Under the pieces are notes generated by a model. The model was given only the letters and a program-made list of their open reading frames with translations. It searched no databases and was not told where the DNA came from. The translations under genes and the position numbers were made by a program. Positions 36,276 through 54,959 of a DNA stretch of 60,026 nt are shown piece after piece; the stretch's first letter is position 1, and each line of letters starts with the position of its first letter. The DNA comes from a phage: the sequence record PV806339.1. One strand, written 5' to 3'.

Positions 36276-36305
36276 GTAAAAATCCCCGTTGTTGCCTTCG
36301 GGGAT
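36276..36305 (-). terminator. hairpin plus U-tract overlapping the discriminator of the adjacent promoter
   Basis: Minus strand reads ATCCCCG-aaggcaacaa-CGGGGAT-TTTTT. The 5' arm (36305-36299) begins immediately after the -10 element. Confidence 0.6.
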
Positions 36306-36335
36306 AATATAGGTTATACACGCGACGTATGTCAA
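36306..36335 (-). promoter_or_regulatory. sigma70-type early promoter, leftward operon 4
   Basis: Minus strand reads TTGACA-TACGTCGCGTGTATAACC-TATATT (18-bp spacer). The spacer carries the conserved box. Confidence 0.7.
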
Positions 36336-36342
36336 ACAGTTT

Positions 36343-36855
36343 CTAAGACTTTCTTTTCCGGGCGTGCTCCAGTCGATCACCGTGGCCCTTCTCGACCATG
36401 AAATCGCGGGTCTGTTTGTGCAGGTTGGCGATCGTCTCCTTCGTTTTCCGCCAGCGCGCCACTAACCCTTCGCGCACTTCCCGTTCGCGGAACAGGACGG
36501 CCAAGTCCGTCGCGGTGATGTCGTACCCTTCGCACGCGGCCAAAACTCCGGCCTTGAATTCGTAGAACAGGCTTTGGATCTCCCGGAATTCGGCCTCGGT
36601 TACGATCTCGATATTGACCGTTTTCCCTTCACCGATGTCGTCCTCGGTAAACAGGCACCCGGCTTCGCCAATGGCGCGGCCATCGTCCTTCCGGTAGCGC
36701 GTATTCCCTACGATGATCTGCGTCGGCGTGGTGCGCTCTACGCGTCGTTTCACGGCGAAGGTTACTTCCGGGCTGTACCCGATACGAATGCTGTTACGCT
36801 CCAGTGTCATGTCGCCAGTTTCGAGGTGTCCGAATCTCAATTTTTTATCGGCCAT
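36343..36855 (-). CDS. hypothetical protein
   Basis: 170 aa, last gene of leftward operon 3. Confidence 0.75.
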   Translation of the reverse strand: MADKKLRFGHLETGDMTLERNSIRIGYSPEVTFAVKRRVERTTPTQIIVGNTRYRKDDGRAIGEAGCLFTEDDIGEGKTVNIEIVTEAEFREIQSLFYEFKAGVLAACEGYDITATDLAVLFREREVREGLVARWRKTKETIANLHKQTRDFMVEKGHGDRLEHARKRKS

Positions 36856-37091
36856 TCTGCGTATTCTCCCTTCGGTAATTCGTCAGTCACGTCGCGCTCG
36901 GCCCATTTCAGGAACGCTTCGCGGGTGCAACTTGGATAGTGTCGGCCAAAGCCTACGACCGGGCCGTCATACTGGATGTGCGTGGCACCGATGTACAGGA
37001 TGGTGCGGTCGTTCACCAGTCCGCTGCGGTTCTGCGGCCGTTTACCGCGATAGGTGCGGCCGACTTTAAGTTTTAACGCTTCATCGGCCAT
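36837..37091 (-). CDS. hypothetical protein
   Basis: 84 aa, within the operon. Confidence 0.65.
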   Translation of the reverse strand: MADEALKLKVGRTYRGKRPQNRSGLVNDRTILYIGATHIQYDGPVVGFGRHYPSCTREAFLKWAERDVTDELPKGEYAEWPIKN

Positions 37092-37302
37092 CGGTGTCCA
37101 CCTCGACTTCGAACGTGCGCGGAACGGTCATGGTCAGCACGTCATTCTCGGTGAACGGTGACAGCGGTTCGTCGCCCGGCTGGAAGCGCAGCGTCACGCT
37201 GCCGACGTTGTGATACGTGATATAGCGAAGGCGGAACTGCTCGCCGAAGATGGTCGCGAGTACGCCCGGCTTAACGTCTCCTGCGGGAATTTTCATGGTC
37301 AT
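37081..37302 (-). CDS. hypothetical protein
   Basis: 73 aa when started at the ATGA overlap (37302). The ORF opens at 37326. Confidence 0.6.
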   Translation of the reverse strand: MTMKIPAGDVKPGVLATIFGEQFRLRYITYHNVGSVTLRFQPGDEPLSPFTENDVLTMTVPRTFEVEVDTDGR

Positions 37303-37493
37303 AGTCTCCAGTCTAACGGCTCCCATTGGCCGTCTCGTTTGATGTAGCAGCCGCTTAACGGGCTGTATTTGGTTGGTAGTTCGGTCTGGACGCTGACGTC
37401 GTTACACCCGATCGCCGCGCCCACACGGCCAATAACAAACAGCACACCGCAGATAATCAATACAAACAGCGTTAGCGCAGCGATCTTCTTCAT
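37299..37493 (-). CDS. small membrane protein
   Basis: 64 aa with an N-terminal TMD (IAALTLFVLIICGVLFVIG). Confidence 0.65.
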   Translation of the reverse strand: MKKIAALTLFVLIICGVLFVIGRVGAAIGCNDVSVQTELPTKYSPLSGCYIKRDGQWEPLDWRL

Positions 37494-37503
37494 GGTGGCC
37501 CCT

Positions 37504-38322
37504 TTATTCCTTCGGTGGATTTGATTGGTGGCGATTTAGCCAGATGACAATCCCGGCAGTATAATTGATCACGCCGAGCAACTCCCTAACCCTTTGGTCA
37601 TGCGTTGGCAGGTTGACGCCTTCTACGACCTTCTTGCACACCTGATAGACCAAGCCGAGCGGGCTACCGATCAGGTCGGAAATAGCGTTCATCGGCTGCT
37701 GGTGGAAAGGCAGGTCGTTTGCGTGGCGTTCCCGCCCTTTACCATACGCGGCTTGCGTCAGCGCATCATGCAGCACTTTGACTAATTCGGAATAATCGTT
37801 GCTGTCTTTGACGTCCCGGAATTCGTATTTCCATGACCGGGGGGCCGAAGGTGCCACGGCTTCCGGCGCGACGAGGGCTTCGTTAAGCGGCCAGCCCTGC
37901 GCGAAGGAGAACATGATGTAATTCATTGCGTCGATGTACTGATTCTCTTCGAGACAACGACGAATGGCGTCGGAACATTGCTTCGGCCAGTCCGGCTGCA
38001 TCCATCCCAATTCCAGTCCCGGGTTTTTGCGCTCGAACTGCACCAGACGGTCAAGCATGTAGCCGAAAGTCTTCTCGGCCTGTTCAACCGTTGGCGCGCT
38101 CAGTTTAGGGCGGCGCAGCACGATGACCGTCTCGGCGTCGGCGGCTTTCGGGATGGCGATCTGATTGTCCATCATGGAATTGATAAGTTCGAGAACGTGG
38201 TCGGTCGCGTCGTCGTCCGTTTCAAAGTCGTCCATGTCGAGGTTCAGTGCGTTCATCACTGAATTGCGGAAACGCTGCGCGGATGGCTTGCCAGCGTGCT
38301 TTTGTTTTGATGCGTCTACCAT
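37504..38322 (-). CDS. hypothetical protein (C-terminal YGKGRERH...INY motif, possibly all-alpha NTP-pyrophosphohydrolase-like)
   Basis: 272 aa, first gene after promoter 38362-38390. The family guess is weak and rests on the motif only. Confidence 0.7.
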   Translation of the reverse strand: MVDASKQKHAGKPSAQRFRNSVMNALNLDMDDFETDDDATDHVLELINSMMDNQIAIPKAADAETVIVLRRPKLSAPTVEQAEKTFGYMLDRLVQFERKNPGLELGWMQPDWPKQCSDAIRRCLEENQYIDAMNYIMFSFAQGWPLNEALVAPEAVAPSAPRSWKYEFRDVKDSNDYSELVKVLHDALTQAAYGKGRERHANDLPFHQQPMNAISDLIGSPLGLVYQVCKKVVEGVNLPTHDQRVRELLGVINYTAGIVIWLNRHQSNPPKE

Positions 38323-38324
38323 AA

Positions 38325-38360
38325 TAAAAAACTCCCGTTGGTGGATTAACCTTCGGGAGT
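38325..38360 (-). terminator. hairpin plus U-tract overlapping the initial transcribed region of the adjacent promoter
   Basis: Minus strand reads ACTCCCG-aaggttaatccaccaa-CGGGAGT-TTTTT. The 5' arm (38360-38354) starts 2 nt after the -10 element. The 3' arm contains the SD GGGAG of the next gene. Confidence 0.65.
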
Positions 38361-38361
38361 A

Positions 38362-38390
38362 ATATTAATTACACATGTCGCGTGTGTCAA
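38362..38390 (-). promoter_or_regulatory. sigma70-type early promoter, leftward operon 3
   Basis: Minus strand reads TTGACA-CACGCGACATGTGTAAT-TAATAT (17-bp spacer). The box is present in inverted orientation. Confidence 0.75.
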
Positions 38391-38399
38391 ACGCTTTCT

Positions 38400-39086
38400 T
38401 TAAATCTCGTCCCACATCTTGATCCAGCGGTTCCGGATCTTGGCCGATACGTTAGCCAGTGGCGCGCCGATTTCCAGTAGCGTTTCACGGTCGATATACT
38501 CGTTGGGGTGAATGCGGTCACTCTCCGGGTCGAAGATGTGGATGGCCGCGCCGAACCCGGCTGACGTGATTTCGCTGCTGCCTTCCTTCGGCCGGAACCA
38601 GACTGGCGGTTCAAACCCGATGCGCCCTTTGATGAAGATGGTACGCGTGGCGATAGCGTCCGGCCACCAGCTTTCTGATGTCGCGGACTTGGTCAGCCAG
38701 ATGGTTCCCGCACCTTTGGCCCGTTCTTCGTCGGCCTTGCGCATGATGTGCGTCATCCCGGTCAGGTGATCTTTCCCGGCGCGCTTCTGGCTGTAAGGGG
38801 GGTTAGCGTAGGCCCAAACGCGGGTCTTCTGGTCGAACCCGTCGCTGGCGTGGATCTCGGCCAGACGTTTTGACCAGTCCTGCTTTAACGCATTGTCTTC
38901 GGCGGTGAAGAAGCGCTGACATTTGGCGTTCTGGCCGTCGGTGAACAGGTCAAGCACGATTGGCCCGTACAGCTTGTTAATCGCTTGAAACAGCCATTCC
39001 GGCGTACGCCATTGGTCGCCGATCATCTTTGGTTCGTGTTCGTCCATGTTTTTCATGGCGTTGAGTGCATCAACATACTGGCTCAT
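38400..39086 (-). CDS. dam: DNA N6-adenine methyltransferase (phage Dam family)
   Basis: DQWRTPEWLF...LDLFT, the catalytic NPPYS motif and the C-terminal FIKGRIGF match the phage Dam (T1-type) family pattern. Confidence 0.8.
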   Translation of the reverse strand: MSQYVDALNAMKNMDEHEPKMIGDQWRTPEWLFQAINKLYGPIVLDLFTDGQNAKCQRFFTAEDNALKQDWSKRLAEIHASDGFDQKTRVWAYANPPYSQKRAGKDHLTGMTHIMRKADEERAKGAGTIWLTKSATSESWWPDAIATRTIFIKGRIGFEPPVWFRPKEGSSEITSAGFGAAIHIFDPESDRIHPNEYIDRETLLEIGAPLANVSAKIRNRWIKMWDEI

Positions 39087-40186
39087 TAAAACGTGTCTCC
39101 GTTAAGCAGGTCTTCGGCCTCGCGGTAGAAGGCTTCGTATTTGTCCTCCGACATCATTGTCAGCGAATGGACGCCTGCATATTTGCGGGTCAGATCGCTG
39201 AACGTGGACGCGCTCGCGAGGGAGTGGAGGCGGTTGATCATGTCTTTGACCATTTGCTGCGTGACCGTCTTCGGTGGCGGTGACAGCAGCAGGTTATCGC
39301 ACATCGCATGGATGAACGACGTTACTTGTGGCGGAAGCCCGACTACCAGATCTGCATCAATGCGATAGTGCGGGATTTCGAGGTATTCCGCCGCCTGTAA
39401 CGGGTATGTGTGGAAGGCGGACAGGACAACCATGCGAGCGGCCGTAAGGTCGATGGCCGCCAGTTCTTCCCATGCCGCGCGAACCGAGGCGGACTGTCGG
39501 GTGTACCGTACGTTATTCTGTAGTGACTTGATCGTGGCGCGCAGCTTAGTGATTTCCCGGTCGTGCTCGGTGTTATCGTCGGCGTGACGGCGGTGGGCCT
39601 CGGATAACTGGATTTGCAGACTGGTGACAGCGCTTTCAGCAGTATCGAGACGGCGGCCTTTGTCGTCCAGCGCTTCGCGTAGTGCAGCCAGTTCGCCCGG
39701 CGTGATGTTGGCGAGGCGCAGCGGTTCGAAGTCTTTCAGCGTCAGCGGGCCATCGCTGGTCATCTGTCCGGTCAGGCGCTGTATGTCCTGCATGGCGAGG
39801 CTTCCGGCCAGTTCGAGGCTGGTGGTGCCTGCAATCTTCGCGTATTTAGCGCGGGCGCGTACCGTTTCGAGGATGGTGCTCAGGATCTGCTGGCACTGCT
39901 CGCGCTCCCACTCGGTCACTTCGGCGGCCGTTGGCGTAACTGCGGACGGACGTTTAACCCGCGTCCAGTGAATGCGGATCTCCCGGGGCATCGCGTCACC
40001 GTCCACCTCGACTTCATCGACTGACTGGATGTTCCCTTCCGGAACGCCGCAGTTATCGAGAAGGTATTTATGCGCCACGCACAGGATATGATTCGGGGAT
40101 ATGCCGCCTTCCTGCTCGATAGCCATGACGAGGATGTCTTTCAGGCTTTTGTCGTCGGTGATGTAAGTGACTTTTGGTTCGCTCAT
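39086..40186 (-). CDS. hypothetical protein
   Basis: 366 aa. TAATG coupling to dam. Contains a coiled-coil-like central region. Confidence 0.8.
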   Translation of the reverse strand: MSEPKVTYITDDKSLKDILVMAIEQEGGISPNHILCVAHKYLLDNCGVPEGNIQSVDEVEVDGDAMPREIRIHWTRVKRPSAVTPTAAEVTEWEREQCQQILSTILETVRARAKYAKIAGTTSLELAGSLAMQDIQRLTGQMTSDGPLTLKDFEPLRLANITPGELAALREALDDKGRRLDTAESAVTSLQIQLSEAHRRHADDNTEHDREITKLRATIKSLQNNVRYTRQSASVRAAWEELAAIDLTAARMVVLSAFHTYPLQAAEYLEIPHYRIDADLVVGLPPQVTSFIHAMCDNLLLSPPPKTVTQQMVKDMINRLHSLASASTFSDLTRKYAGVHSLTMMSEDKYEAFYREAEDLLNGDTF

Positions 40187-40788
40187 TTGGATACCTTTAA
40201 GATGTTAGAGAATTCAACGATGTTGACGATTTTGTGCTGGCGGCCGCTGTTCGATCTGGCGAGGCTGGCCGACTCCATCACGCGAGGATTCATTTCAACG
40301 CGCGGCGTGCGCCCGGTACCGTATTGATCCATGCTGCTCATGCGGTCAACGCTGATGCTGTACATCTGGCTGGCCGTCATCCAGTTACCCATCGTATTGA
40401 TGAAAAATTCCATCGCCTGCAATGCGTCGAGCGCATAGACCAACGTGGACGCGTTGTCCGTGTACAGCACGTACGCGCCGACGGACGGCACAACCTTATC
40501 GACGCCGCTCATGTACTGCTCGATCCATTCTGGCGGCACTGGCGGCACGGCCAGACGTTCCCCGGTAGCCGGGCTGCCGTACGGATAGGCGAAAGCCGGG
40601 CTGGACGACACGCGACGTCCGGTAGGCGTGGTCGTCGCCATTGCTTTCGGCGCGTCGGACTCCGGCGCGGTGCATGGGGGTGGGTCGATGTCATTCGCAT
40701 CCCATGTCTTCTGGCAGTCCCGGCAATAGAATTGGTCACTATGCTGCACGACTGATAAGTGGCTTCCGCCAGTGGCTTCGATTCTCAT
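40183..40788 (-). CDS. hypothetical protein with an N-terminal CxxC motif
   Basis: About 201 aa when started at the ATGA overlap (40788). The ORF opens at 40851. Confidence 0.65.
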   Translation of the reverse strand: MRIEATGGSHLSVVQHSDQFYCRDCQKTWDANDIDPPPCTAPESDAPKAMATTTPTGRRVSSSPAFAYPYGSPATGERLAVPPVPPEWIEQYMSGVDKVVPSVGAYVLYTDNASTLVYALDALQAMEFFINTMGNWMTASQMYSISVDRMSSMDQYGTGRTPRVEMNPRVMESASLARSNSGRQHKIVNIVEFSNILKVSK

Positions 40789-41531
40789 ATCTCGACTTCC
40801 CCTTCGGTTAAAATGCGAAACGCGCCGCCGCCGACTTTCCAGCCCTGCCATACGTCGGCCAGAAGCGCCGCCCGGTACTTCCGGTGAAACACGTTATAAA
40901 TCATGTCCCAATTCTCACTCGGCAGGTCAGACGCGATACCGCCGCCCTCCCACGCCCAATCACGCGGCGACTGCGTCAGCCATTTCAGCGGAGGACGGGG
41001 GTAGGTGTACGGATTCGCCAGACCGCAGGCCACCAGCCCGCGTTTAATCCATGCACGTTGCCACCATAAATCGTGAACCGTCTTCCCGGCGATGAATTCT
41101 TCGTCCAGCATCGCGCACAGGATCGTCATGGCGGCCTTTTCTGCGTTCATGGGTACGCCAATGTCGTCCCAATCTTCCAGCGCCGCCCTGACGCCGTCAG
41201 CGCTGCCGTCGTCGTTGCTGGTGGATGAACGGTCATGCAGGATGACGTCGAACACCATGAACGGGAACACGACCTGTTCGCCGTTCCGCGTGTATTTCGG
41301 GTTAGGCTCGCTGAACATGGCCGAGTACAGGCGGCGGATGTGGTCTTCGAGATCCGGGACGAAGCCAGTCAGGTTTTCGGTGGTGTCGGCGTTAACGACT
41401 TCAAGGTCGGTTCCGTTGGTGCGGACAAGGCAGCGCGGCCCGTACGGCAGGGGGAACACGTACAGCACTTCTTTCCCGATCAACGCTTGGTTGAAAGGTA
41501 CGAATTTCATTACGTGGGTCTTCATCGGCAT
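40785..41531 (-). CDS. hypothetical protein (first gene of leftward operon 2)
   Basis: 248 aa. AAGGAG SD, downstream of promoter 41554-41582. Confidence 0.8.
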   Translation of the reverse strand: MPMKTHVMKFVPFNQALIGKEVLYVFPLPYGPRCLVRTNGTDLEVVNADTTENLTGFVPDLEDHIRRLYSAMFSEPNPKYTRNGEQVVFPFMVFDVILHDRSSTSNDDGSADGVRAALEDWDDIGVPMNAEKAAMTILCAMLDEEFIAGKTVHDLWWQRAWIKRGLVACGLANPYTYPRPPLKWLTQSPRDWAWEGGGIASDLPSENWDMIYNVFHRKYRAALLADVWQGWKVGGGAFRILTEGEVEI

Positions 41532-41553
41532 GACTCCTTTGTTATGGTACGGG

Positions 41554-41582
41554 AATATTAGTCGTACACGCGACGTACGTCA
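41554..41582 (-). promoter_or_regulatory. sigma70-type early promoter, leftward operon 2
   Basis: Minus strand reads TTGACG-TACGTCGCGTGTACGAC-TAATAT (17-bp spacer) with the conserved box. Confidence 0.75.
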
Positions 41583-41603
41583 ATAACTTTATTCGGGGCA
41601 AAA

Positions 41604-41634
41604 GAAAGCCCGCGTAAAGGGATTGCGGGCTTTT
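41604..41634. terminator. bidirectional rho-independent terminator ending leftward operon 1
   Basis: AAAGCCCGC-gtaaagggatt-GCGGGCTTT, with T-runs on both strands (the minus strand continues TTTCTTTT). Confidence 0.85.
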
Positions 41635-41720
41635 GGAAGGTGGCATCCGAAGATTACCACTGGCTTAAAGCGGACAACGCAGGAGCCGATAAGGAAGCAC
41701 TATGCCGAGTCCGCAGTTAA

Positions 41721-41999
41721 TCATATGTCGGGGTTACTGTAAATAAGATTCCAGTATTTGTACTCCTTCAAGTCCAGTTCGATGACGCATGGGTCATCCA
41801 GCGCGCTCAGGCAGGTGCCGTAGTCCTCGACAAAGACGCAGGAGGATTCCGGGTGATGCAGCAGGCGTACCCGGCGGTAGTTCAGGTGCCATTCCGGACT
41901 GAACACATGATCCTCCGGCTGGCGTATCAGCATGATCTGGCCTGTCGTTTTGACCTGCCAGTATTGGTCTACTTGGGGCGTGGCATAGGCTCCCATTTC
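41721..41999 (-). CDS. hypothetical protein
   Basis: 92 aa from the ATG 41999 with an AAGGAG SD. The longer ORF to 42128 overlaps the upstream gene. Confidence 0.65.
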   Translation of the reverse strand, partial: EMGAYATPQVDQYWQVKTTGQIMLIRQPEDHVFSPEWHLNYRRVRLLHHPESSCVFVEDYGTCLSALDDPCVIELDLKEYKYWNLIYSNPDI

Positions 42000-42000
42000 G

Positions 42001-42234
42001 TTACTCCTTTTTATCCGCTTTGTCCCGGTAAACGCGGGTACCCATCTTCCCGTAGATCTGGTCTTGCAACGTGAACCGGATGGACAGGCGGATGTTAAGC
42101 CGATAGCCCATTCGACGCAGATAGCCAAGATCCTGCGGCTTCACGCCTTCGATAAAGAACGAATCGCCGTCCTTCATCCCGAGCAGAAGTTTTTCGTGAG
42201 TTTCACGCACGCTTTTGTCGGTAGTCGCGGCCAT
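42001..42234 (-). CDS. hypothetical protein
   Basis: 77 aa, within the operon. Confidence 0.65.
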   Translation of the reverse strand: MAATTDKSVRETHEKLLLGMKDGDSFFIEGVKPQDLGYLRRMGYRLNIRLSIRFTLQDQIYGKMGTRVYRDKADKKE

Positions 42235-42236
42235 TG

Positions 42237-43313
42237 TTAAACCTCGTCGTCGTCTTCTTCGTCGTTCAGCGTTCCGGTGTACTCGACTACCTGCCCGGCC
42301 TCGTCCAGCACGCTGATCACCGCACGCAGGGACTTATCGAGTTGGAACAGGTTAGCCATCATGGTCAGGAACTGGCCGCCGTCGGTGCCGTAGCGTTCGA
42401 GCGTGGCGTCGTAGTTCGCATCAACGTCGGCCTCGCCGATGTGGATACCGGACAGGATGGCTTTGTCGGACAGGCGGAAGTACACGGTGTCGATGCCCGG
42501 GCATTGCGTATCGACTTCGAGATCCAGCGCGCGGACAGTCCAGTGACGTGACAGCAGGTCAACCACCGACTCGTCTTTGAAGATGTCCGTGTCCTTCATC
42601 TTGACGTCGTCGCCATCGTCGTGTTTCAGGTGGATAAACGCATCGCCCTTGATGCCGTCCTGCTGGCCGAGAACCGCGCGCTGCATTAACTGGCGCAGCT
42701 CATACTCGCTCGGCAGGAGGTGTTCGACGGGCCATGTGCCGAGCGCGGTACGGATCAGCGCGCTGCACTCTTCTGCCGTCTTCGCGCTCGACGTGAACAC
42801 GTACACGAACGGGGCGGACAGGATGACGTTGACGCGGGAAGGGCGGATAGGCGCGTGTTTCAGCATTTCCGCTTCCACGTCGTCCTTCATCTGCGCCCAA
42901 TCCTTGCGGTTCGGCTCCCAACCCTCGATCTCTTTCTCCCGCAACGCGGCCATGCGCTTCACGACTTCATTTCGTACGCTGACGCCGGGCAACACACGTT
43001 CGCGCTTCTCGATCTGGAAGACGATGGCGTTTGTTCCGGGGATGGCGAGGGCGAATTTACTTTCAACCTCTTCGCCGTACGCTGCAAAGCCCATTGTCTT
43101 GTAAGACGCCTCCGGCGGATCTGACACTTCATGCTTTTCGAGTGCATCGCTAAACGCTCCTTTCGCGAAAGCCGTTACGGCCTCTTCGTCAACGTTCGGC
43201 AGGTTCAGGATCAGGCGGTGCAGCGGCTTGACCTTCTCGTTACCGTCGTTGGCCGCGTCATACAGCGCGCCGAGGTGCAAGATAATGGCTTTCTCATAAC
43301 CCTTGATTTTCAT
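42237..43313 (-). CDS. RdgC-like recombination-associated protein
   Basis: 358 aa. The segment ERVLPGVSVRNEVVKRMAALREKE...VFTSSAKTAEECSALIRTALGTWPVEHL parallels E. coli RdgC (...[21 protein letters not shown]) as I recall it. Ends EEDDDEV. Confidence 0.5.
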   Translation of the reverse strand: MKIKGYEKAIILHLGALYDAANDGNEKVKPLHRLILNLPNVDEEAVTAFAKGAFSDALEKHEVSDPPEASYKTMGFAAYGEEVESKFALAIPGTNAIVFQIEKRERVLPGVSVRNEVVKRMAALREKEIEGWEPNRKDWAQMKDDVEAEMLKHAPIRPSRVNVILSAPFVYVFTSSAKTAEECSALIRTALGTWPVEHLLPSEYELRQLMQRAVLGQQDGIKGDAFIHLKHDDGDDVKMKDTDIFKDESVVDLLSRHWTVRALDLEVDTQCPGIDTVYFRLSDKAILSGIHIGEADVDANYDATLERYGTDGGQFLTMMANLFQLDKSLRAVISVLDEAGQVVEYTGTLNDEEDDDEV

Positions 43314-43656
43314 GCTCTATGGCTCCTACGTTAATTAAATTGGCTGGTGCTCCGTGGTACATCGACTGCGCAGCATGGAACATCGCGGCGCGTAGTGCTT
43401 CTTTGGCCGCCCGAAGGCCCGCCATTGATTCAGCGTACTGGTCGCTGACCGTGTTATACGCCGCCTCGTCGTTGTCCAGTGTGGCGAGGTCAAGCATTTT
43501 GGTACTGTGGGCCTGCACTTCGTCTTCCATGTCCTTGAAAAACGTCTCAAGGGCAGACAGTTTGCAGGTGATTTGGTCTAACCGGACTTTGCGCAGTTCT
43601 TGGAACTGCACGCGAACGAATTCAATGCCTTCCACCAGCCACCTCCACGACGACAT
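43294..43656 (-). CDS. hypothetical coiled-coil protein
   Basis: 120 aa, within the operon. Confidence 0.65.
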   Translation of the reverse strand: MSSWRWLVEGIEFVRVQFQELRKVRLDQITCKLSALETFFKDMEDEVQAHSTKMLDLATLDNDEAAYNTVSDQYAESMAGLRAAKEALRAAMFHAAQSMYHGAPANLINVGAIEHENQGL

Positions 43657-43957
43657 TCTGCACTTCCGGGCATGGCATATTCGTCATGGCCCAATCCAGA
43701 AACTTCACGATGTACATGCGCATGGCCGTGCATTCATCCGCGCCGCGAGCCTCGCCGTGCTTCGCGATGGCCGGGTCGCCAGACTGATAGAAGGTCACGC
43801 GGTGATTCGTGGCCGCCGACACCTTGATCCCGGTGTGCGTGGCATGGATGGTCACGCTGTAGATCCGCTCGATAGCGCGGAACGCCGGGACGACGTCGAT
43901 GCGGCCTTTCGGGTGCATGGCGTTGTTCACCATCAACGCGGTATTAGTCGGCTGCAT
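43622..43957 (-). CDS. hypothetical protein
   Basis: 111 aa. AGAGGA SD upstream of the ATG at 43957. Confidence 0.7.
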   Translation of the reverse strand: MQPTNTALMVNNAMHPKGRIDVVPAFRAIERIYSVTIHATHTGIKVSAATNHRVTFYQSGDPAIAKHGEARGADECTAMRMYIVKFLDWAMTNMPCPEVQNVVVEVAGGRH

Positions 43958-44384
43958 TCAGAGGTTCCTCTTTCAGACGGTAGGTGATGGTGTCCGGGCG
44001 AGTCGCGTCGATTTCCAGTTCAGGCATCTGCCCGGTGATCAGGCGGGACGGCGTAAGGACTGCGGTGCGCAGGCCATTCTCGAACATGATGTTGGCCGCC
44101 GTGACCAGCGAAATACTTTCGATGTGGTCTTGGGTCTGGTCGAGGCGGCGCTGTAACAGTTCGACCTTCTCCGCGTTCGTGTCCGGAATGTCGAAGGCAG
44201 ACCGCAAGCCATCGATCAACGCAATAGCGTCCGCGCGGGTCAGGGGGGTAACGATCTCGGTGTCGCCGTTGTCCTTCTCGATGTAGATCTCGCCGTCCTT
44301 CTGGCCGGGCTTCTTGTAGATAAAGGCCGTGCGGGTGATGTCGCGTACCGGACTCAGTTCAATAGGGTGGTGCGTGGTTTTCAT
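43944..44384 (-). CDS. hypothetical protein
   Basis: 146 aa, within the operon. Confidence 0.75.
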   Translation of the reverse strand: MKTTHHPIELSPVRDITRTAFIYKKPGQKDGEIYIEKDNGDTEIVTPLTRADAIALIDGLRSAFDIPDTNAEKVELLQRRLDQTQDHIESISLVTAANIMFENGLRTAVLTPSRLITGQMPELEIDATRPDTITYRLKEEPLNAAD

Positions 44385-44455
44385 CGGTGTGCGTCCTATA
44401 GGGTGTCAGGTCAAAAGGGTGGTACGCCATTTTTCAGGCGTGCCGTCCTACGTTT

Positions 44456-44827
44456 TTAAACTTCGTCGTCGTCCGAAACGTCGGTGTCAGTACAGGTCAC
44501 AACGGCCTGAATGAACATGCGGCCAGACGGGTAAGTCACCAGCGCGGATTCCATGCTGAACCGTTGGCCGTGGTGTTTCATGGCGTTCCGGATGGAAGAA
44601 TTAAGGCTGGCCCGCATCTTCGCTTTGAGGGCATTGGCCTCGTCCTGTACCTGCGAAAGCGTACGGTCAAGCGGGAGTTCTTGGGACAGGGTGTACACGC
44701 CACCGACTTCCAGCGCAATGAGGTTCCCCACGACGCTGTACACGCGCACGCGTGACGGCAGTTCAACATCCGGCTCGGTCGTCATCATTGCGCCAGTCAG
44801 TTCGGCCGGGCTTAGTTCTTTGCTCAT
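44456..44827 (-). CDS. hypothetical protein (first gene of leftward operon 1)
   Basis: 123 aa. TGGAG SD. Ends ...VSDDDEV. Confidence 0.75.
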   Translation of the reverse strand: MSKELSPAELTGAMMTTEPDVELPSRVRVYSVVGNLIALEVGGVYTLSQELPLDRTLSQVQDEANALKAKMRASLNSSIRNAMKHHGQRFSMESALVTYPSGRMFIQAVVTCTDTDVSDDDEV

Positions 44828-44869
44828 TGGGATGGCTCCAGTTGGTTCGTTAAATGTTACGTTCGGAGA

Positions 44870-44898
44870 ACAATAGTTCTACACGCGACGTATGTCAA
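44870..44898 (-). promoter_or_regulatory. sigma70-type early promoter, leftward operon 1
   Basis: Minus strand reads TTGACA-TACGTCGCGTGTAGAAC-TATTGT (17-bp spacer) with the conserved box. Confidence 0.7.
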
Positions 44899-44948
44899 TT
44901 CATTTCATCCAGTAATTATGATGACCGGGTGACACTCCAGTTTAGTTT

Positions 44949-45187
44949 CAGCCGGATGACTTTTTGAAGTAAGGCGGGTGGCCGGGCCGCCGGGCTTCAA
45001 CCGGGTAACTTTTTCAAGTAAGCGCGGAACGTCGCAACGACAACCGGACAGGTTTTTCAAGTAAGCCCGTCAGCCGGGTGAAATTGCCCCGACGCTGGTG
45101 GACAAAACCGTCAGCCGGGTAGGTTTTTGAAGTAAGAACTGGCCGCGTCGTTCAAAATTTTTCAACCGGGTAACTTTTTCAAGTAAG
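44949..45187 (+). repeat. five ~25-bp iterons CA(A/G)CCGG(G/A)(T/C)RNNTTTTT(C/G)AAGTAAG
   Basis: Copies at 44949-44973, 44998-45022, 45041-45065, 45112-45136 and 45163-45187. Copies 2 and 5 are identical. Partial copies lie at 44921-44940 and 45071-45085. Confidence 0.9.
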
Positions 45188-45493
45188 CCCGTCGGGAATT
45201 TTTATAGAGAAAGTCAGGCCCGGCGCGGCCTGCCGTTGTGGGCGGTTGTCGTTTTTGGCGGGATTTCGTACAAATCGTTATAAATCAACGGCTTAACCTA
45301 TGCGCCGATCGGCCTGTTTTGGCCCGGTTGGCGTCGGTTTTTCGTATAGAGTTCAAGTGTTTAGGACGTGGCGCGGTGTGCCGTTTGGCGGTGTGCCGGG
45401 GCGGGGGCCGTGGGGCGCGGCGGTGCAATGCGGCCCGGCGTGGCGATCGGTGGCGCTTTTATGTGCGGTTAATCAAATAATATGAAAAAAGAT

Positions 45494-45523
45494 TTGACGC
45501 ACGCCGCGTATATCATTTACATT
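45494..45523 (+). promoter_or_regulatory. sigma70-type promoter, rightward cassette 1
   Basis: TTGACG-CACGCCGCGTATATCATT-TACATT, followed by the leader hairpin CCC-TTCG-GGG. About 65 bp are shared with the promoter at 48128. Confidence 0.65.
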
Positions 45524-45587
45524 TAAATTCCCTTCGGGGGACGGGGCAAAAAGTCCCGGCGATAAACTAACTTTATGAGGTGTCACG

Positions 45588-45848
45588 ATGGAAAAGGTAT
45601 ACAACGCGATCAAGGGTCAGACGTTGCAACATTGGTTATCAATCGTTATTAAGCGCGACGAAAGCGGCACGGCAACGGTTGAACTGCATAGCACGATCCA
45701 CGTTAACCGGGTGAGCACGCTTTCTTTTTCATGGGGGAAGGAATTCACCGACGCCGATATTTTAAATGACAATGATTTATTACGCGTTATTTATCAGAAG
45801 TACGGCCGCGAAATTTTCACCGCCGAATATACCCGCGATTTCAAATAA
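45588..45848 (+). CDS. hypothetical protein
   Basis: 86 aa. GAGG SD. Confidence 0.7.
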   Translation: MEKVYNAIKGQTLQHWLSIVIKRDESGTATVELHSTIHVNRVSTLSFSWGKEFTDADILNDNDLLRVIYQKYGREIFTAEYTRDFK

Positions 45849-45861
45849 GAGGATCAACACA

Positions 45862-46401
45862 ATGCAAACTATCATTACCAAATATTCTAACGGTTCAATT
45901 ATGGCTAAATGCTGGAATGGTTGGACGCGTTCACAGTATGACGCTGAATTAAATAGCGAACAAAATCACCGCGCGGCCGCTGAAAAGTTGATCGCTAAAC
46001 TCAATGCGAATAAATCAGTTAGTTGGGGGATTGTTGCTAGTGCGCCATCCGTGCCGGGCGTGCGTGGTACGGATAATGGCTGGACGTTTATGATCGGTTA
46101 TATTCCAGAAGTCGCGCCGCTGGATATGTCGATCACTGTTAAATTCTGCCCGGCAACAAATAAAGGCCCGGCGTATATGCGCGTTTATTCGTGGTTAGTG
46201 CCGCGCGGGATCAAGGTTAACTATTCGCCACGCGTCGCCGACGGGTCAGACATTCAAGCCAATGCACGATACGCGGCCGGGATCATGTTAGAGCGAATTA
46301 ATGAAATATGCCGCGAGGGGGGCGATCTTTTAGGCTGGAAAATTGCGGACTATGTGCAATTGTACGACGGCGATCGCCTGTTCACACTGAAAGCTAATTA
46401 A
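45862..46401 (+). CDS. hypothetical protein
   Basis: 179 aa from the ATG 45862 with an AAGAGGA SD (the ORF opens at 45766). Confidence 0.75.
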   Translation: MQTIITKYSNGSIMAKCWNGWTRSQYDAELNSEQNHRAAAEKLIAKLNANKSVSWGIVASAPSVPGVRGTDNGWTFMIGYIPEVAPLDMSITVKFCPATNKGPAYMRVYSWLVPRGIKVNYSPRVADGSDIQANARYAAGIMLERINEICREGGDLLGWKIADYVQLYDGDRLFTLKAN

Positions 46402-46415
46402 TCCGGGGGCGCGTC

Positions 46416-46616
46416 ATGTTAATGGCTATTATCTTGATCGGTTATTCAATTATTGCGGCTGTTATATATCGTGACGCGCGGGCGGTGTGGCGTCGCTGTA
46501 AGGTTGAGCGCCGTTATTCTTTCGGGCGTAAAACTTTTTATTTACGCGAGCGTAAAACAGGCCGTTTGATCGGCTGTTCAAATAATTTTTTCACTCTTCT
46601 GTTACAAGGGGCTTAA
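46416..46616 (+). CDS. small membrane protein
   Basis: 66 aa. N-terminal TMD, then an Arg/Lys-rich tail. GGGGG SD. Confidence 0.55.
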   Translation: MLMAIILIGYSIIAAVIYRDARAVWRRCKVERRYSFGRKTFYLRERKTGRLIGCSNNFFTLLLQGA

Positions 46617-46618
46617 TC

Positions 46619-47101
46619 ATGAATCTTAATTCTATCAATAAAGATCAACGTTTATACGTCATGAAAGCGGGCGCGGGCTTTACCTGCTACGGGTTCGACG
46701 TGCTGAACAATAAAGCGCGCCGGGCGTTGGAATGGTTAAAGCGTCACGGCCGCGCGGCTGAAATGCTGTTAGGGGCAAAGGGGATCGACGTCATCGCGCT
46801 GGATATTCCCGCCCGCGTTGGTACTAAAAAACATTTTGCCGCGTGCAATAAGGTATTCGACGCCGCGCGGATCTATTCCATCGCGAGCGGCAATAAATGC
46901 GATGCGGAATATACACCGCAATTAATCGGCCTTGAGGGTCGCCGCGTGGAAGTGGTGGACGCATACGGGGAAACGCGCCGCTTTACCGTGGGGCGGTCAT
47001 CCGGCTGGATGCCTTGCCACCTTGAGATCGCCCGCCGCGATTCCAACGGCGGCCCGGCGGTGACGGGCGCGCCTTTTAAATCCGTATCCGTAATTAACTA
47101 A
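46619..47101 (+). CDS. hypothetical protein
   Basis: 160 aa, tightly packed against its neighbours. Confidence 0.75.
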   Translation: MNLNSINKDQRLYVMKAGAGFTCYGFDVLNNKARRALEWLKRHGRAAEMLLGAKGIDVIALDIPARVGTKKHFAACNKVFDAARIYSIASGNKCDAEYTPQLIGLEGRRVEVVDAYGETRRFTVGRSSGWMPCHLEIARRDSNGGPAVTGAPFKSVSVIN

Positions 47102-47112
47102 CCGGGGGATCT

Positions 47113-47316
47113 ATGGGTCATATGTATGGCGTTATCTTGTCAAATGGTACGCATTGCGACACGTCAACCACGGAAAAGGGCGCGAAAAATTACGCCACGC
47201 GCCACGGTTACAAGGAAGTAAGCCGCCGCCTGAATTGCGGCTATGACGTCGAAATCGTAGCACATCGCGCCGGGTCGAAATGGATCGACGGGCCTGCTAA
47301 CCACTCAACCAAATAA
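47113..47316 (+). CDS. hypothetical protein
   Basis: 67 aa. GGGGGA SD. Confidence 0.6.
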   Translation: MGHMYGVILSNGTHCDTSTTEKGAKNYATRHGYKEVSRRLNCGYDVEIVAHRAGSKWIDGPANHSTK

Positions 47317-47326
47317 GGGGATCACC

Positions 47327-47875
47327 ATGAAACTAAATATCACCGCGCCGGGCCTGTTCTTTAATCGTAGCGGCGACCGCGTCACCGTGGATCAAATCGT
47401 TTTAGAGAATAGCGCCGGGGCCGTCGTGTCATTCCCTGTTAAGGGCCGGATCTGGAAAATGTACCGGGGCGCTTATCGTCCGCGTGAGTTCAAGATCTGG
47501 ACGGCGGCGGGCAAGTTTTACGCGGGCGAACAATCCCGATCGCCGTGGGATATTGTCGGCGAGGTTGTCGCGGACGATGTGCGCCCGGTGTACTGGCAAG
47601 ATCTGACCGATGTCCAGAAAGCGCAAGCCGCCGCCAAATATCACAACGGGGAAGGCACGCCGGAAGATTATTTCACCTATACGCCGGATCAATTCATCCT
47701 GATTAATGGTGACGTTTACGATCTGGACGCCGACGCGGCCGTTTATGAGGTGGAAGGGTTAAAAGGTCATGTGCGCATACTGGAAAGCTCAAAGGCGGAC
47801 GGGGCCGCGTTGGCGGTGCAATGTGTGGACGGCTGGCAAGTAATAAGCGTTTACCGCGTACAGGTGGCATCATGA
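47327..47875 (+). CDS. hypothetical protein
   Basis: 182 aa. AGGGGA SD. Confidence 0.75.
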   Translation: MKLNITAPGLFFNRSGDRVTVDQIVLENSAGAVVSFPVKGRIWKMYRGAYRPREFKIWTAAGKFYAGEQSRSPWDIVGEVVADDVRPVYWQDLTDVQKAQAAAKYHNGEGTPEDYFTYTPDQFILINGDVYDLDADAAVYEVEGLKGHVRILESSKADGAALAVQCVDGWQVISVYRVQVAS

Positions 47876-48093
47876 ATAAAACCGGATTTTCGGGGAACGC
47901 CGCAAGGGCCGCGATCAAGTTTACCGCGTGCGGCGCGATCGTGGCGTTTATCGGGGCGGCGGTTATTTTCGGCGACAACGTCGGGCCATATAAAGTGTTT
48001 TTGTATACCGTCGCCGGGGGCGTATGTGTGCGCCTGATTTGGCCGACTCAAGACGAGGGCGACGCGCTTTTAAAACGGGATGACGGCCCGTAA
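47872..48093 (+). CDS. small two-TMD membrane protein
   Basis: 73 aa started at the ATGA overlap. Hydrophobic segments ACGAIVAFIGAAVIF and FLYTVAGGVCVRLIW. Confidence 0.6.
   Translation: MNKTGFSGNAARAAIKFTACGAIVAFIGAAVIFGDNVGPYKVFLYTVAGGVCVRLIWPTQDEGDALLKRDDGP
47878..47904 (+). repeat. 27-nt repeat, copy A (coding, 5' end of the membrane-protein gene)
   Basis: aaaaccggattttcggggaacgccgca matches 50543-50569 at 26 of 27 positions. Confidence 0.9.
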
Positions 48094-48127
48094 TGGTGAC
48101 GCGGCCGACGATTAAAGAGAAAAGTTA

Positions 48128-48157
48128 TTGACGCACGCCGCGTATATCATCTATTAT
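48128..48157 (+). promoter_or_regulatory. sigma70-type promoter, rightward cassette 2
   Basis: TTGACG-CACGCCGCGTATATCATC-TATTAT (18-bp spacer), followed by the same CCC-TTCG-GGG leader. Confidence 0.7.
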
Positions 48158-48218
48158 TAAATTCCCTTCGGGGGCCGGGGGCAATGGGGCCGACGGTTAT
48201 CAAAACAGGTACATAAAA

Positions 48219-50569: not shown

Positions 50570-50610
50570 CGATCCCTTTTAACCTGTTTTGACATATTCC
50601 CCATGTATCA

Positions 50611-50640
50611 AAGGCCGCCTATCCGGGCGGCTTTTTTATT
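50611..50640 (+). terminator. rho-independent terminator ending rightward cassette 2
   Basis: GCCGCC-tatccg-GGCGGC followed by TTTTTTATT. Confidence 0.9.
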
Positions 50641-50647
50641 GCCTTTC

Positions 50648-50846
50648 TGATATACGCGGCGTGCGTTGGTGTGCCGTGTATCGGGCCTATGGTGCGCCGC
50701 TGTAGTTGATATACGCGGCGTGCGTATGGCGGCCCGTCCTGCTTTCTTCCTTCCTGATATACACGACGTGCATCAATGCGGCCTTATGTGCGCGCTATGC
50801 CGTATGGCGGCCCGCTATGGTGCTGCATGATATACGCGGCGTGCGT
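50648..50846 (+). repeat. four promoterless copies of the early-promoter spacer box
   Basis: TGATATACGCGGCGTGCGT at 50648-50666, 50707-50725 and 50828-50846, plus the variant TGATATACACGACGTGCAT at 50755-50773. No usable -10/-35 pair accompanies them. Confidence 0.9.
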
Positions 50847-51083
50847 TGGTGTGCGGCTGTATATGGCTATCTATTCCCCTTTCTATGGTATCCCCTGCTA
50901 TATGGTGTGACGGGGCGTTATTGTATGCCCTTATTTCGGCCGCTATGGGGGCTAGGCGGGGCGATCGTGGTGTAAGGTATGCCTACCTATTACGATCTAT
51001 CTTGCGAGGCGTGGCGGGCGGCTGAGAAAGAATTACGGTCACGATTTCAAAAAGGTACTTACCCGCCAGTCGGTCGGCCCGGG

Positions 51084-51095: not shown

Positions 51096-51307
51096 CGCTT
51101 TCTCGGAAAATGGGCCGGATCTGCCATAGCCCCGCTTTGCGAAATCAATAACTTAGCCGAAAAACCGAATTTCTCCCGTAGGGAGTCTCCAAATCGCGGT
51201 GGTGACGGGGGTGCGGGCGGAACGGCGCTTTAGCCCCGCAATCGGTTGATTGTATTACTGTTTTACCCGGTGGGCGGGTGCTGACCAAGTCCACGGCAGC
51301 AGTATCA

Positions 51308-51587
51308 GGTTACAAGTTACAGACGGGTTACAAGTTTTTCGCTTTGTAACCTCTAACTATCTCACTGTTTTTACTGCGTTTTTCTCCTATAAAGTTACAA
51401 GTTACAAATAAAGTATAGTAATAGTCCAGAAATAGAGAAAACGAGGTAAAAATGTGAATTTTATATAGGGGGGAATTTTACCCGGGCGCTAAACCACTTC
51501 GGTTTGTAACCTGAATACCCGGATCGCTGAGAGCCGCGCCACCACTGGCCCGAACATGGTTACAAACGGCGAAAATGGTATGTAACC
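51308..51587 (+). repeat. array of GGTTACA(A/T) half-sites in direct and inverted arrangement
   Basis: ggttacaagttacag 51308-51322; GGTTACAAG-n7-CTTTGTAACC 51326-51351; gttacaagttacaaa 51394-51408; ggtttgtaacc 51501-51511; GGTTACAAAC-n9-GGTATGTAACC 51558-51587. Confidence 0.85.
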
Positions 51588-51620
51588 TTTTGCCCGTTTT
51601 GGCCGTTTTCTTGCGTTTCA

Positions 51621-51636
51621 ATAACAAATTTGTTAT
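51621..51636 (+). promoter_or_regulatory. perfect 16-bp palindrome ATAACAAATTTGTTAT (operator candidate)
   Basis: Lies just upstream of the putative promoter of the XRE gene. A further half-site TTTGTTAT lies at 51667-51674, just after the -10 element. Confidence 0.6.
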
Positions 51637-51654
51637 ACGTCTTGCCCCGAATCC

Positions 51655-51663
51655 TGCTATAAT
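51655..51663 (+). promoter_or_regulatory. extended -10 promoter TGcTATAAT for the XRE-family gene
   Basis: TGCTATAAT lies 34 nt upstream of the ATG at 51697. The -35 element is poor. Confidence 0.45.
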
Positions 51664-51696
51664 TTATTTGTTATAAACAGCAAAAATAGGTCAAAA

Positions 51697-51984
51697 ATGC
51701 AGCACGATGAATGCCGTGAAACGTTGATGGATTTCAAACGACAATTACAGACACATTTGAAGGCGATTTTACGTCGTCAGGGGGTCACACAGAGCGCGCT
51801 TGCGACGATGATCGGCGTACACCAGTCAAGATTAAGTTTCATGCTTAACAGTGACGCAGACAGAGTTTCGATCGATAAACTCATTGAAGCGATAGTGAAA
51901 CTGGACGGCGTGTTTATGGTGAAAATCGGAGATCAAACAGACATAAATCGAGTGCGGTACAAGGAGTGCGAAGACAACGTTTGA
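51697..51984 (+). CDS. XRE-family HTH DNA-binding protein
   Basis: 95 aa. HTH segment VTQSALATMIGVHQSRLSFMLN. Confidence 0.75.
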   Translation: MQHDECRETLMDFKRQLQTHLKAILRRQGVTQSALATMIGVHQSRLSFMLNSDADRVSIDKLIEAIVKLDGVFMVKIGDQTDINRVRYKECEDNV

Positions 51985-54610: not shown

Positions 54611-54888
54611 TCAAGGATTTCCCCTGTTTCGCTGTCCGTTTTGATCCATGAAGGGTTAGTCAGCCAATGCGGACGGATGCCGCAGTGAGGGACAGCTTTG
54701 CAAACTTTTTCGGCCACGCTGCTCGTTACGTTGTTCTGCACGGCCCATAACAATGTCGGGTAACTGATCTTCGCTGCCTTCGCCAGTTCGGCCATTCTGG
54801 CGTTCGGGTCTACCTCCAAAGCCGCTTGCATCATGAGAAATTTGACCCGCATCCGGTCGTCGTTTAAAGCCCAATCTGGAAATCGCAT
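54607..54888 (-). CDS. Cro/YdaS-like HTH protein
   Basis: 93 aa. HTH-like MAELAKAAKISYPTLLWAVQN. GAGGG SD. ATGA-coupled to the primase gene. Confidence 0.65.
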   Translation of the reverse strand: MRFPDWALNDDRMRVKFLMMQAALEVDPNARMAELAKAAKISYPTLLWAVQNNVTSSVAEKVCKAVPHCGIRPHWLTNPSWIKTDSETGEILE

Positions 54889-54930
54889 AGTGATGCCCTC
54901 GCGTAATGTGCGCGTGTTATAGATTTGCGG

Positions 54931-54959
54931 ATATTATATCCGGGCTTGACATCTGTCAA
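54931..54959 (-). promoter_or_regulatory. sigma70-type promoter for the HTH-primase operon
   Basis: Minus strand reads TTGACA-GATGTCAAGCCCGGATA-TAATAT (17-bp spacer). The -35 element is part of the palindrome CTTGACAtcTGTCAAG. Confidence 0.7.

Follow-up and report, generated by a model that had tools for sequence, protein, structure and literature searches.

The phage genome analysed here (sequence record PV806339.1; the whole stretch of 60,026 nucleotides is referred to as the window) carries six predicted σ70 promoters in which most of the spacer between the −35 and −10 boxes is occupied by a 17-bp dyad with the Chi-like consensus ACAYACG-N3-CGTRTGT and a free centre. Five further copies of this element, associated with no promoter, lie beside the right end of the chromosome. 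The explanation that we favor, with a probability of about 0.6, is that a phage-encoded dimeric regulator, most simply a repressor, acts on operators in the early promoters. The window is related to Chi, a classic flagellum-dependent phage, and to other Casjensviridae, a family increasingly used for therapy and in defence-system screens.

The region is 93–96% identical to Salmonella phage Chi and ~130 relatives. In the window, position 51083 corresponds to the right end of the curated linear record of Chi, and the 12-base cohesive end of Chi that was determined by Hendrix et al. follows immediately; the window is therefore a whole genome, namely a complete, circularly permuted Chivirus genome (Chi-like, Casjensviridae), probably that of E. 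coli phage LuPh5 (PMC12671086), the name used below. Chi is a lytic phage according to the same authors (PMC4342425).

51084–51095, + strand: cos, the cohesive-end sequence GGTGCGCAGAGC, with the right chromosome end at 51083 (Hendrix et al. 2015, PMC4342425)

The sites, their symmetry, register, conservation and co-variation, and the end array were computed from this genome and from relatives comprising Klebsiella phages Seifer and KPN N98 (N98), Providencia phage PibeRecoleta (Pibe), Salmonella phage SAP012 (NC_053008.1), Proteus phage RP6, Serratia phage JS26, and Smarc5, JC01, MA11, Chi and YSD1. Seifer is related to the window phage by a protein-level identity of only ~65%. A literature search found no description of promoters or of these repeats in Chi-like phages, and the genome papers mention neither.

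A dyad in the spacer of six promoters

A preliminary description of this DNA, made from its letters alone, had placed a conserved box in the spacers of six early promoters, and the coordinates and sequences that it gave for the six sites are confirmed. All have a TTGACA or TTGACG −35 hexamer, a spacer of 17–18 bp and a TAnnnT −10 box, with 9–11 of 12 hexamer positions matching the σ70-type consensus; all lie in intergenic gaps at the head of operons on the matching strand, with an A-rich stretch 5′ of the −35 box. Their function as promoters is predicted from these sequence features and from homology to the early promoters of JS26. A combined pattern, TTGACRYACGYSRCRTRTR, has six exact matches in the window, and nine when up to two mismatches are allowed, compared with 0.14 expected from shuffled sequences. 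The recurrence of a conserved core likewise holds, the 12-nt sequence ACGYCGCGTRTA being present in eight exact copies and in none of the shuffles. Two box sub-types can be distinguished, leftward and rightward (scores are from the weight matrix described below):

36306–36335, − strand: leftward promoter P36335; TTGACA, 18-bp spacer, TATATT; element 36316–36332, ACATACG-TCG-CGTGTAT on the promoter strand; matrix score 20.5
38362–38390, − strand: leftward promoter P38390; TTGACA, 17-bp spacer, TAATAT; element 38371–38387, ACACACG-CGA-CATGTGT; score 22.4
41555–41583, − strand: leftward promoter P41583; TTGACG, 17-bp spacer, TAATAT; element 41564–41580, ACGTACG-TCG-CGTGTAC; score 11.8
44870–44898, − strand: leftward promoter P44898, at the divergent region; TTGACA, 17-bp spacer, TATTGT; element 44879–44895; score 16.2
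45494–45523, + strand: rightward promoter P45494; TTGACG, 18-bp spacer, TACATT; element 45497–45513, ACGCACG-CCG-CGTATAT, sub-type B
48128–48157, + strand: rightward promoter P48128; TTGACG, 18-bp spacer, TATTAT; element 48131–48147, identical to that of P45494

The two rightward promoters are evident duplicates, including their leader hairpin.

The dyad is centred near −24 and begins at the fourth base of the −35 hexamer, so that it shares its first three bases with the end of the −35 box. The leftward promoters of Seifer read TTGACA-YACG-NNN-CGTGT-GCARC, with a variable middle triplet, and the leftward and rightward promoters of Pibe contain ACAYAYG-N3-CGTRTGT. When 25 promoters from four genera (Chivirus, Yonseivirus, Redjacvirus and Lavrentievavirus) were scanned for dyad symmetry in every register, a single peak was obtained, centred at +11 from the first −35 base, where on average 4.1 of 7 pairs are complementary (background ~1.8). 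Dyads in the same register are also found in SAP012, Smarc5, JC01 and JS26, making eight lineages in all, the full number of those examined that have this promoter type.

The box had initially been regarded as orientation-independent, with its reverse complement at the same position in the promoter at 38390. This view requires revision: the element is a palindrome with a free centre, that is, one of ordinary dyad symmetry, and the copy at 38390 appears inverted because the element is palindromic. The exact 9-mer GTCGCGTGT is indeed present there in reverse, but it is shifted by 2 bp rather than being in the same position; in the common register the site reads CACG-CGA-CATG, fitting YACG-N3-CRTG, and no other dyad of the window is better.

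A symmetric weight matrix trained solely on the promoter sites of Seifer, Pibe and SAP012 ranked the six promoters and the five right-end copies as the top 11 sites in the window, the best being the element of P38390, after which scores drop from 9.8 to ≤8.7. The same matrix gave a clean ranking in Pibe (six promoters, four right-end copies and one left-end copy). A degenerate copy that had been suggested in the primase leader (54905–54921) falls outside the top 16 matrix sites and is unsupported. Loose dyad patterns with mismatches, searched for throughout the genome, gave counts no higher than those in shuffled sequences.

One element-like sequence, CTGACGCAAGCCGCGTATGG at 37742–37758 (− strand), lies within the gene at 37504–38322 and has no −10 box. 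Its matrix score is 7.6 here and 13.5 in Chi and YSD1, and it could be either a chance match or a weak operator within the gene.

Conservation of the dyad as a probable binding site

The half-sites differ between lineages in a paired manner. YACG-N3-CGTR cores are found in Chivirus, Smarc5, Yonseivirus, Redjacvirus and Zhonglingvirus, and lineage variants in JC01 (ACACAY-N5-RGTGTR), RP6 (ACACC-N7-GGTGT) and JS26 (ACAnGC-N5-GCnTGT). Over 62 distinct sites the two arms are complementary in 283 of 434 cells, as against 255 ± 7 with shuffled right arms, and none of 5,000 shuffles reached the observed value. The pair at positions 5 and 13 is present in four complementary types, A:T, C:G (RP6), G:C (JS26) and T:A. 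Shuffling the arms within genomes did not lower the score, so that compensation occurs by lineage and not site by site, which is what would be expected of a protein with a drifting half-site preference and does not fit a hairpin. A hairpin or cruciform origin of the dyad is rejected on this ground, and also because the element lies 5′ of the transcription start.

Closely related genomes provide further evidence. At the first rightward promoter, the elements of Seifer (GCACTCGTTCCGTGTGC) and N98 (GCACACGGAATGAGTGC) agree at 16 of 17 positions when one is read as the reverse complement, and at 11 of 17 when both are read directly, between flanks that can be aligned; the element has thus been inverted in place. 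The third end copy shows a symmetric double change, from CACTC...GAGTG to CACAC...GTGTG. The element of P36335 is invariant across LuPh5, Chi and YSD1, and in that of P38390 the changes seen in Chi and YSD1 are confined to an R position and the free centre. Across four Chivirus genomes, 7 of 187 element positions (3.7%) are variable, versus 163 of 1,583 other non-coding positions (10.3%; p = 0.0013), and the elements are under purifying selection, being ~3 times less variable than neighbouring non-coding DNA.

The proposal that the box is a selected protein-binding site, and not a relic of promoter duplication, is supported by the fixed register of the dyad in eight lineages with both arms changing together, and further by the in-place inversion, the promoter-less copies and the ~3-fold lower variation. 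It is very probable, on this comparative evidence, that the dyad is an operator bound by a protein. An explanation without a dedicated binder would invoke duplication or gene conversion of a promoter cassette, or a spacer of alternating purines and pyrimidines that tunes RNA polymerase or DNA flexibility. The arms do consist of alternating CA/TG steps, P45494 and P48128 are duplicates together with their leader hairpin, and gene conversion is suggested by the exact match, over 18–19 bp, of the rightward boxes to end copies. Such an origin is nevertheless highly improbable, as some copies have neither a −35 nor a −10 box, symmetry and register are kept while the sequence shifts by lineage in both arms, inversion in place is tolerated, the arms are constrained around a free centre triplet, selection is seen against the background of neighbouring DNA, and other strong promoters of the genome do not have the element. 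Two of these can be given:

54931–54959, − strand: promoter P54959 of the operon of a 93-aa protein and the primase; TTGACA, 17-bp spacer, TAATAT; no dyad in the spacer
55049–55078, + strand: rightward promoter-like site P55049, for replication and late genes; TTGACA, 18-bp spacer, CATACT; no dyad

P54959 can be taken as a negative control. As these sites share the TTGACA hexamer and have no element, the element marks a specific set of operons.

An array of promoter-less copies at the right chromosome end

Five copies of the element near the right end of the chromosome had not been included in the preliminary description. Three of the eight exact core copies and one copy with a single mismatch lie at 50651–50842 with no −35 hexamer, and as no end copy in the window has a −10 box, the end copies are not promoters. 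They form an array in a single orientation with a spacing of 48–73 bp:

50592–50846, no strand assigned: promoter-less array of five copies, at 50592–50608, 50650–50666, 50709–50725, 50757–50773 and 50830–50846
50612–50640, + strand: terminator-like hairpin with a T-run, read from the sequence, that ends the rightward operon and has an equivalent annotated terminator in Seifer

The hairpin sits between the first and second copies of the array. Three of the LuPh5 end copies are identical over 18–19 bp to the boxes of the rightward promoters (sub-type B), in the opposite orientation. The element centres lie at the following distances from the right end:

LuPh5: 484, 426, 367, 319 and 246 bp
Chi: 485, 426, 367, 319 and 246 bp
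Pibe: 485, 426, 344 and 247 bp
Smarc5: 426, 367 and 247 bp
Seifer: 361, 294 and 245 bp

This spacing from the end is kept although the stretch that BLAST can align between these genera is confined to the final ~170 bp. In the right-end area of JC01 there are three copies of the dyad type of that phage, and Pibe and Seifer each have one extra copy at the left end. The SAP012 record does not contain the ~500-bp non-coding right end of its relatives and is uninformative on the array.

These distances raise the possibility that the element acts mainly at the end of the chromosome, for packaging, entry of the DNA, protection of the end or replication, where it would be bound by the small terminase subunit or an end-organising protein; the promoter copies would then be secondary, for example silencing early transcription as the protein accumulates. 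The near-constant positions (~485, 426, 367/344 and 246 bp in Chivirus, Redjacvirus and Smarc5, and roughly so in Yonseivirus) within intervening DNA that can barely be aligned speak for such a role, as do the left-end copies of Pibe and Seifer, the 18–19 bp shared by the LuPh5 end copies and rightward boxes, and the probable entry of the right end into the cell first, by analogy with JS26. The element resembles the R-sites of lambda cosB and the repeat clusters at the first-injected end of T5 in being repeated at fixed positions by a chromosome end. Those repeats, however, do not occur in promoter spacers, and the present array starts 246 bp from the right, probably first-injected, end. Unlike the terminase sites of lambda cosB, which are confined to cos, six of the eleven copies lie 3–15 kb away in promoters, at a fixed register that would be unexpected for packaging. 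RP6, moreover, has the dyads and the same cos without a clear end array, and if packaging were lambda-like, the array would lie further out than cosB and on the opposite side of cos. On balance, we consider a primary role at the end unlikely.

Other repeats were observed at the chromosome ends. TATGG occurs ~9 times between and after the elements of the array (50680–50960), and similar DNA rich in TATGG and GTGG is found in the same place in Pibe and Seifer. At the left chromosome end (51300–51600), GGTTACAAGTTACA and TTTGTAACC are repeated in both orientations on either side of an AT-rich segment (51380–51460); these repeats may belong to an origin or be cosB-like sites bound by terminase. 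In JS26, three direct repeats of GATGATCGGGCTATCTGATAC, 40–50 bp apart, are present at the first-injected end (1–300). These have only TCGGGCTAT in common with the spacer of one early promoter, a match too weak to use. Repeat arrays beside this end, although they can differ in sequence, seem to be a general feature of the family.

Timing of the operons and mode of action

A time course obtained by RNA sequencing is available for JS26 (PMC8754663, and a transposon-sequencing preprint). In that phage the end-proximal operon of small genes is early (5 min), the divergent recombination operon is middle (20 min) and the far-end replication module is middle to late, and its authors infer that the early end is injected first. 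The recombination operon, which is the counterpart of the leftward operon, has consensus TTGACA/TAAnAT promoters with the dyad, and the far-end replication module is the location of the gene for the 93-aa protein in Chi-like phages. By analogy, the rightward and leftward promoters probably constitute two temporal classes that match the two box sub-types. A candidate regulator made late, after entry of the whole genome, would fit a role in shut-off. Of the earlier suggestion that one regulator switches all six operons together, the shared site stands, but joint switching is doubtful in view of the two sub-types and of the JS26 counterparts, which are middle in one case and early in the other.

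Given near-consensus boxes, optimal spacing and the A-rich upstream stretch, a dimer sitting on the −35 box and spacer would most simply be a repressor, and negative control is the mode of action that we consider probable. The alternative is that the bound protein is an activator or a co-factor of RNA polymerase, as are MerR-type regulators and the controller (C) proteins of restriction–modification systems. This could account for the middle timing of the leftward-counterpart operon in JS26, which has consensus promoters with the dyad and may need more than the host polymerase, and controller proteins are among the fold matches of the 93-aa protein. The delay in JS26 is, however, equally explicable by the order of DNA entry, and activation seems unneeded where the −35 box, −10 box and A-tract are already near consensus. 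Like the sites of MerR-family regulators, the dyad lies within the −35/−10 spacer. MerR spacers, by contrast, are 19–20 bp long and activation occurs through untwisting of the DNA; because the spacers here are 17–18 bp, MerR-type activation is excluded. No MerR-family protein was found in Pfam scans of 20 early and left-end proteins, the other proteins of the leftward operon having been scanned with PHROGs only. Activation in any form appears quite improbable.

Candidate binding proteins

Two proteins with a possible helix-turn-helix (HTH) domain had been put forward as the regulator:

54607–54888, − strand: gene, in translational coupling with the primase gene, for a probable HTH protein of 93 aa; best candidate binder
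51697–51984, + strand: gene for an XRE-family HTH protein, with a palindrome of its own, ATAACAAATTTGTTAT, at 51621–51636 and a 12/16 copy at 51659–51674

The protein encoded at 51697–51984 is the only one with significant HTH domain matches (Pfam and PHROGs). Seifer, Pibe, RP6 and N98, all of which bear the dyad, have no homolog of it, and together with its different palindrome this leads us to reject it as the common binder. Around this gene, which is missing or replaced in the four relatives, the perfect palindrome and its 12/16 copy, the latter over the −10 box, bracket a TATAAT box 5′ of the coding sequence (51621–51675); it is probably an autoregulated accessory gene.

All examined genomes that bear the element encode the 93-aa protein, and MA11 does not; this outgroup is also without this promoter type and so supports co-occurrence only. 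Identity to the LuPh5 protein is 84% in Seifer, 57% in SAP012, 56% in Pibe, 52% in N98, ~35% in JC01 and 29–32% in RP6, and the family is small, an exhaustive search having given only 11 representatives. The annotation ‘transcriptional regulator’ is attached to the protein in Hendrix's record and several others. Its AlphaFold2 (AF2) model, with a predicted local distance difference test score (pLDDT) of 65, contains helices at residues 28–38 and 43–52, and the top 50 Foldseek matches of this model are all HTH domains of the XRE/Cro/CI type (E 0.3–1.5), controller proteins included. A profile of the family matches the HTH headpieces of CytR and LacI (E 0.013–0.1), and Pfam gives matches to HTH_26 and LacI below the cut-off. 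The putative recognition helix reads SY.TLLWA..NN where the cores are ACG-N3-CGT, and differs in RP6 and JC01, whose cores differ as well. Taken together, these sequence and fold matches make the 93-aa protein the best available candidate for the binder of the element, although we regard this identification as tentative.

The DUF7609 protein encoded by the first gene of the leftward operon (44456–44827) was considered as an alternative binder; its AF2 model (pLDDT 71) gave scattered Foldseek matches of low TM score and was uninformative. Pfam and PHROGs scans of ~40 early and left-end proteins returned nearly all of them as being of unknown function, and no initiator gene was recognised among them downstream of the regulated promoters.

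The gene for the 93-aa protein and the primase gene form a module that is horizontally exchanged. Between N98 and Seifer the module shows mosaic replacement, with ~68–70% DNA identity within genomes that are otherwise 85–92% identical, and within Chivirus the 93-aa gene falls into two allele classes (100% and 86%).

The binder might instead be supplied by the host, in the form of an Enterobacterales transcription factor or nucleoid protein that would tie the early promoters to the state of the host. The YACG-N3-CGTR core is common to phages of Salmonella and E. coli, Klebsiella, Serratia and Providencia, no phage DNA-binding protein is firmly tied to the site, and four leftward sites and one rightward site were left unchanged by an exchange of the 93-aa allele (see below). 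The half-sites, however, track the phylogeny of the phages and not that of their hosts: Pibe has the standard core and RP6 has ACACC-N7-GGTGT within the same host family, and JC01 and JS26 have further variants. An array beside cos would also be hard to account for by a host factor, and to our knowledge the dyad matches the site of no E. coli regulator. We therefore judge a host factor to be improbable.

Proposed mechanism

On the reading that we favor, a sequence-specific dimer, most probably encoded by the phage, would bind one dyad in each of the six strong σ70 promoters, and the same protein would also occupy the five promoter-less sites situated 246–485 bp inside the right cohesive end. 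Seated on the −35 box and spacer, it would block RNA polymerase and thereby shut off or time the operons. The best candidate for the binder is the 93-aa protein, which is encoded at the far (left) chromosome end under a promoter of its own without the site.

Several observations weigh against this mechanism or parts of it. Although an HTH domain in the 93-aa protein is probable, the assignment comes from three weak signals, none of which passes a curated or conventional threshold, and the AF2 model has a pLDDT of 65. Helix type correlates with dyad type, but phylogeny confounds this correlation. Seifer and N98 have 93-aa alleles that are 52% identical and differ in the putative recognition helix; despite this exchange of alleles, the four leftward elements and one of the two rightward elements are identical, while the second rightward element has the opposite orientation at the same place and there are differences in the end copies, and co-variation of the protein with the promoter sites was not seen in this pair. 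In RP6, which has the dyads in its promoters and an identical cos, an array at the end is not evident. The constant distances of the end copies from the chromosome end across genera are unexplained by a simple repressor model. Finally, as the JS26 operons differ in timing, one regulator acting equally on all six promoters may be too simple.

In a speculative extension of the same mechanism, the array, at its fixed distances from the end that probably enters first, and the location of the candidate regulator gene at the opposite, last-entering end would together form a timer, through which shut-off of the early operons would depend on genome entry or on the state of the cos end. If this were correct, the array could serve for titration, could shield cos from early transcription in the manner of a roadblock, or could be part of a complex that organises the end. 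We know of no operator regulon tied to chromosome-end architecture that has been described for tailed phages.

Comparison with known regulatory systems

The type of system, a phage operator regulon, is known; the present one is an undescribed, family-wide variant with a second location at the chromosome end. It is most readily compared with the Cro/CI operators of lambdoid phages (17 bp in lambda; 14 bp, ACAA-N6-TTGT, in 434), which likewise are dyads of 14–18 bp overlapping the core of early σ70 promoters, have a free or weak centre and graded half-sites, and are bound by small HTH dimers such as the one predicted here; Cro ends early transcription in the lytic cycle. Unlike in those systems, there is a single site per promoter, strictly in the −35/spacer region, rather than tandem triplets, the promoters are six and dispersed, an end array is present, and the 93-aa candidate has no significant sequence match to the Cro/CI families. 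The tandem operators of a lysis–lysogeny switch are not seen, each promoter having one operator; neither a CI repressor nor an integrase was searched for. Pfam and PHROGs revealed a single Cro/C1-type HTH domain, that of the rejected XRE-family protein.

As in the Pant promoter of P22, where Arc represses by occlusion, a strong phage promoter has its operator between the −35 and −10 boxes. Arc, however, is a ribbon-helix-helix protein that binds as a tetramer at a single locus, whereas here there are eleven sites and a probable HTH candidate. The C1 operators of P1 and the ‘stoperators’ bound by gp71 of mycobacteriophage L5 are similar in that one regulator has sites throughout the genome, in promoters and elsewhere; those sites, by contrast, are asymmetric (and orientation-dependent in L5) and belong to temperate phages, whereas the present sites are dyads in which inversion in place is tolerated. 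The promoters also differ from the MotA/AsiA-dependent middle promoters of T4, in which a MotA box at −30 replaces the −35 box, as TTGACA or TTGACG is present in all six. Replication-origin iterons with an autoregulated initiator would consist of tandem direct repeats at an origin and a further copy over the promoter of the initiator gene; the end copies share one orientation at intervals of 48–73 bp, and none of the regulated promoters was seen to precede an initiator gene.

The analysis yields a regulatory map that can be tested, consisting of six promoters, a 17-bp operator with defined critical positions and a short list of candidate binders, and the lineage-specific half-site variants serve as natural specificity mutants. 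That the same site recurs at conserved positions beside the cohesive end suggests that control of the early genes is connected with DNA entry, packaging or the biology of the end. For engineering of these phages, the promoters and the operator could be used as parts.

Additional features of the promoter regions

At the internal leftward promoters P36335 and P38390, a GC stem of 7 bp followed by a T-run lies right after the −10 box (36278–36305 and 38327–38360, − strand). The stem can be folded by read-through RNA from the upstream operon (about −16 kcal/mol), and not by RNA from the predicted +1 of either promoter, because such RNA does not include the left arm. Terminator and promoter thus seem to overlap in a junction by which successive operons would be insulated from one another, and the same arrangement is found in Seifer, Pibe, SAP012 and JC01.

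The rightward transcripts begin with a CCC-UUCG-GGG tetraloop hairpin at the 5′ end, followed by a second stem (45524–45565 and 48158–48200, + strand). The leader hairpin, aaaatcccttcgggg, of P45494 and P48128 is kept as far as JS26 and is homologous to the leaders of the JS26 early promoters; it may serve as a 5′ stabiliser.

A scan of viral contigs with the cos-flanking 14-mer CGGGGCGATCGTGG gave nearly exclusively unrelated GC-rich contigs and one useful Chi-like locus. The public record of SAP012 (NC_053008.1) starts with a remnant of an Illumina adapter (...ACACGACGCTCTTCCGATCT) fused to the cos sequence.

The divergent intergenic region of 600 bp contains, at 44930–45190, five or six direct repeats of CCGGGTAACTTTTTCAAGTAAG in an iteron-like arrangement. 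Their core, CAAGTAAG, is absent from RP6 and is kept in Pibe, Seifer, N98 and SAP012, with CTCAAGTAC in JS26. Situated at the border of the rightward and leftward operons, this array could be an origin, a set of sites for a second regulator or a signal for pausing of DNA entry.

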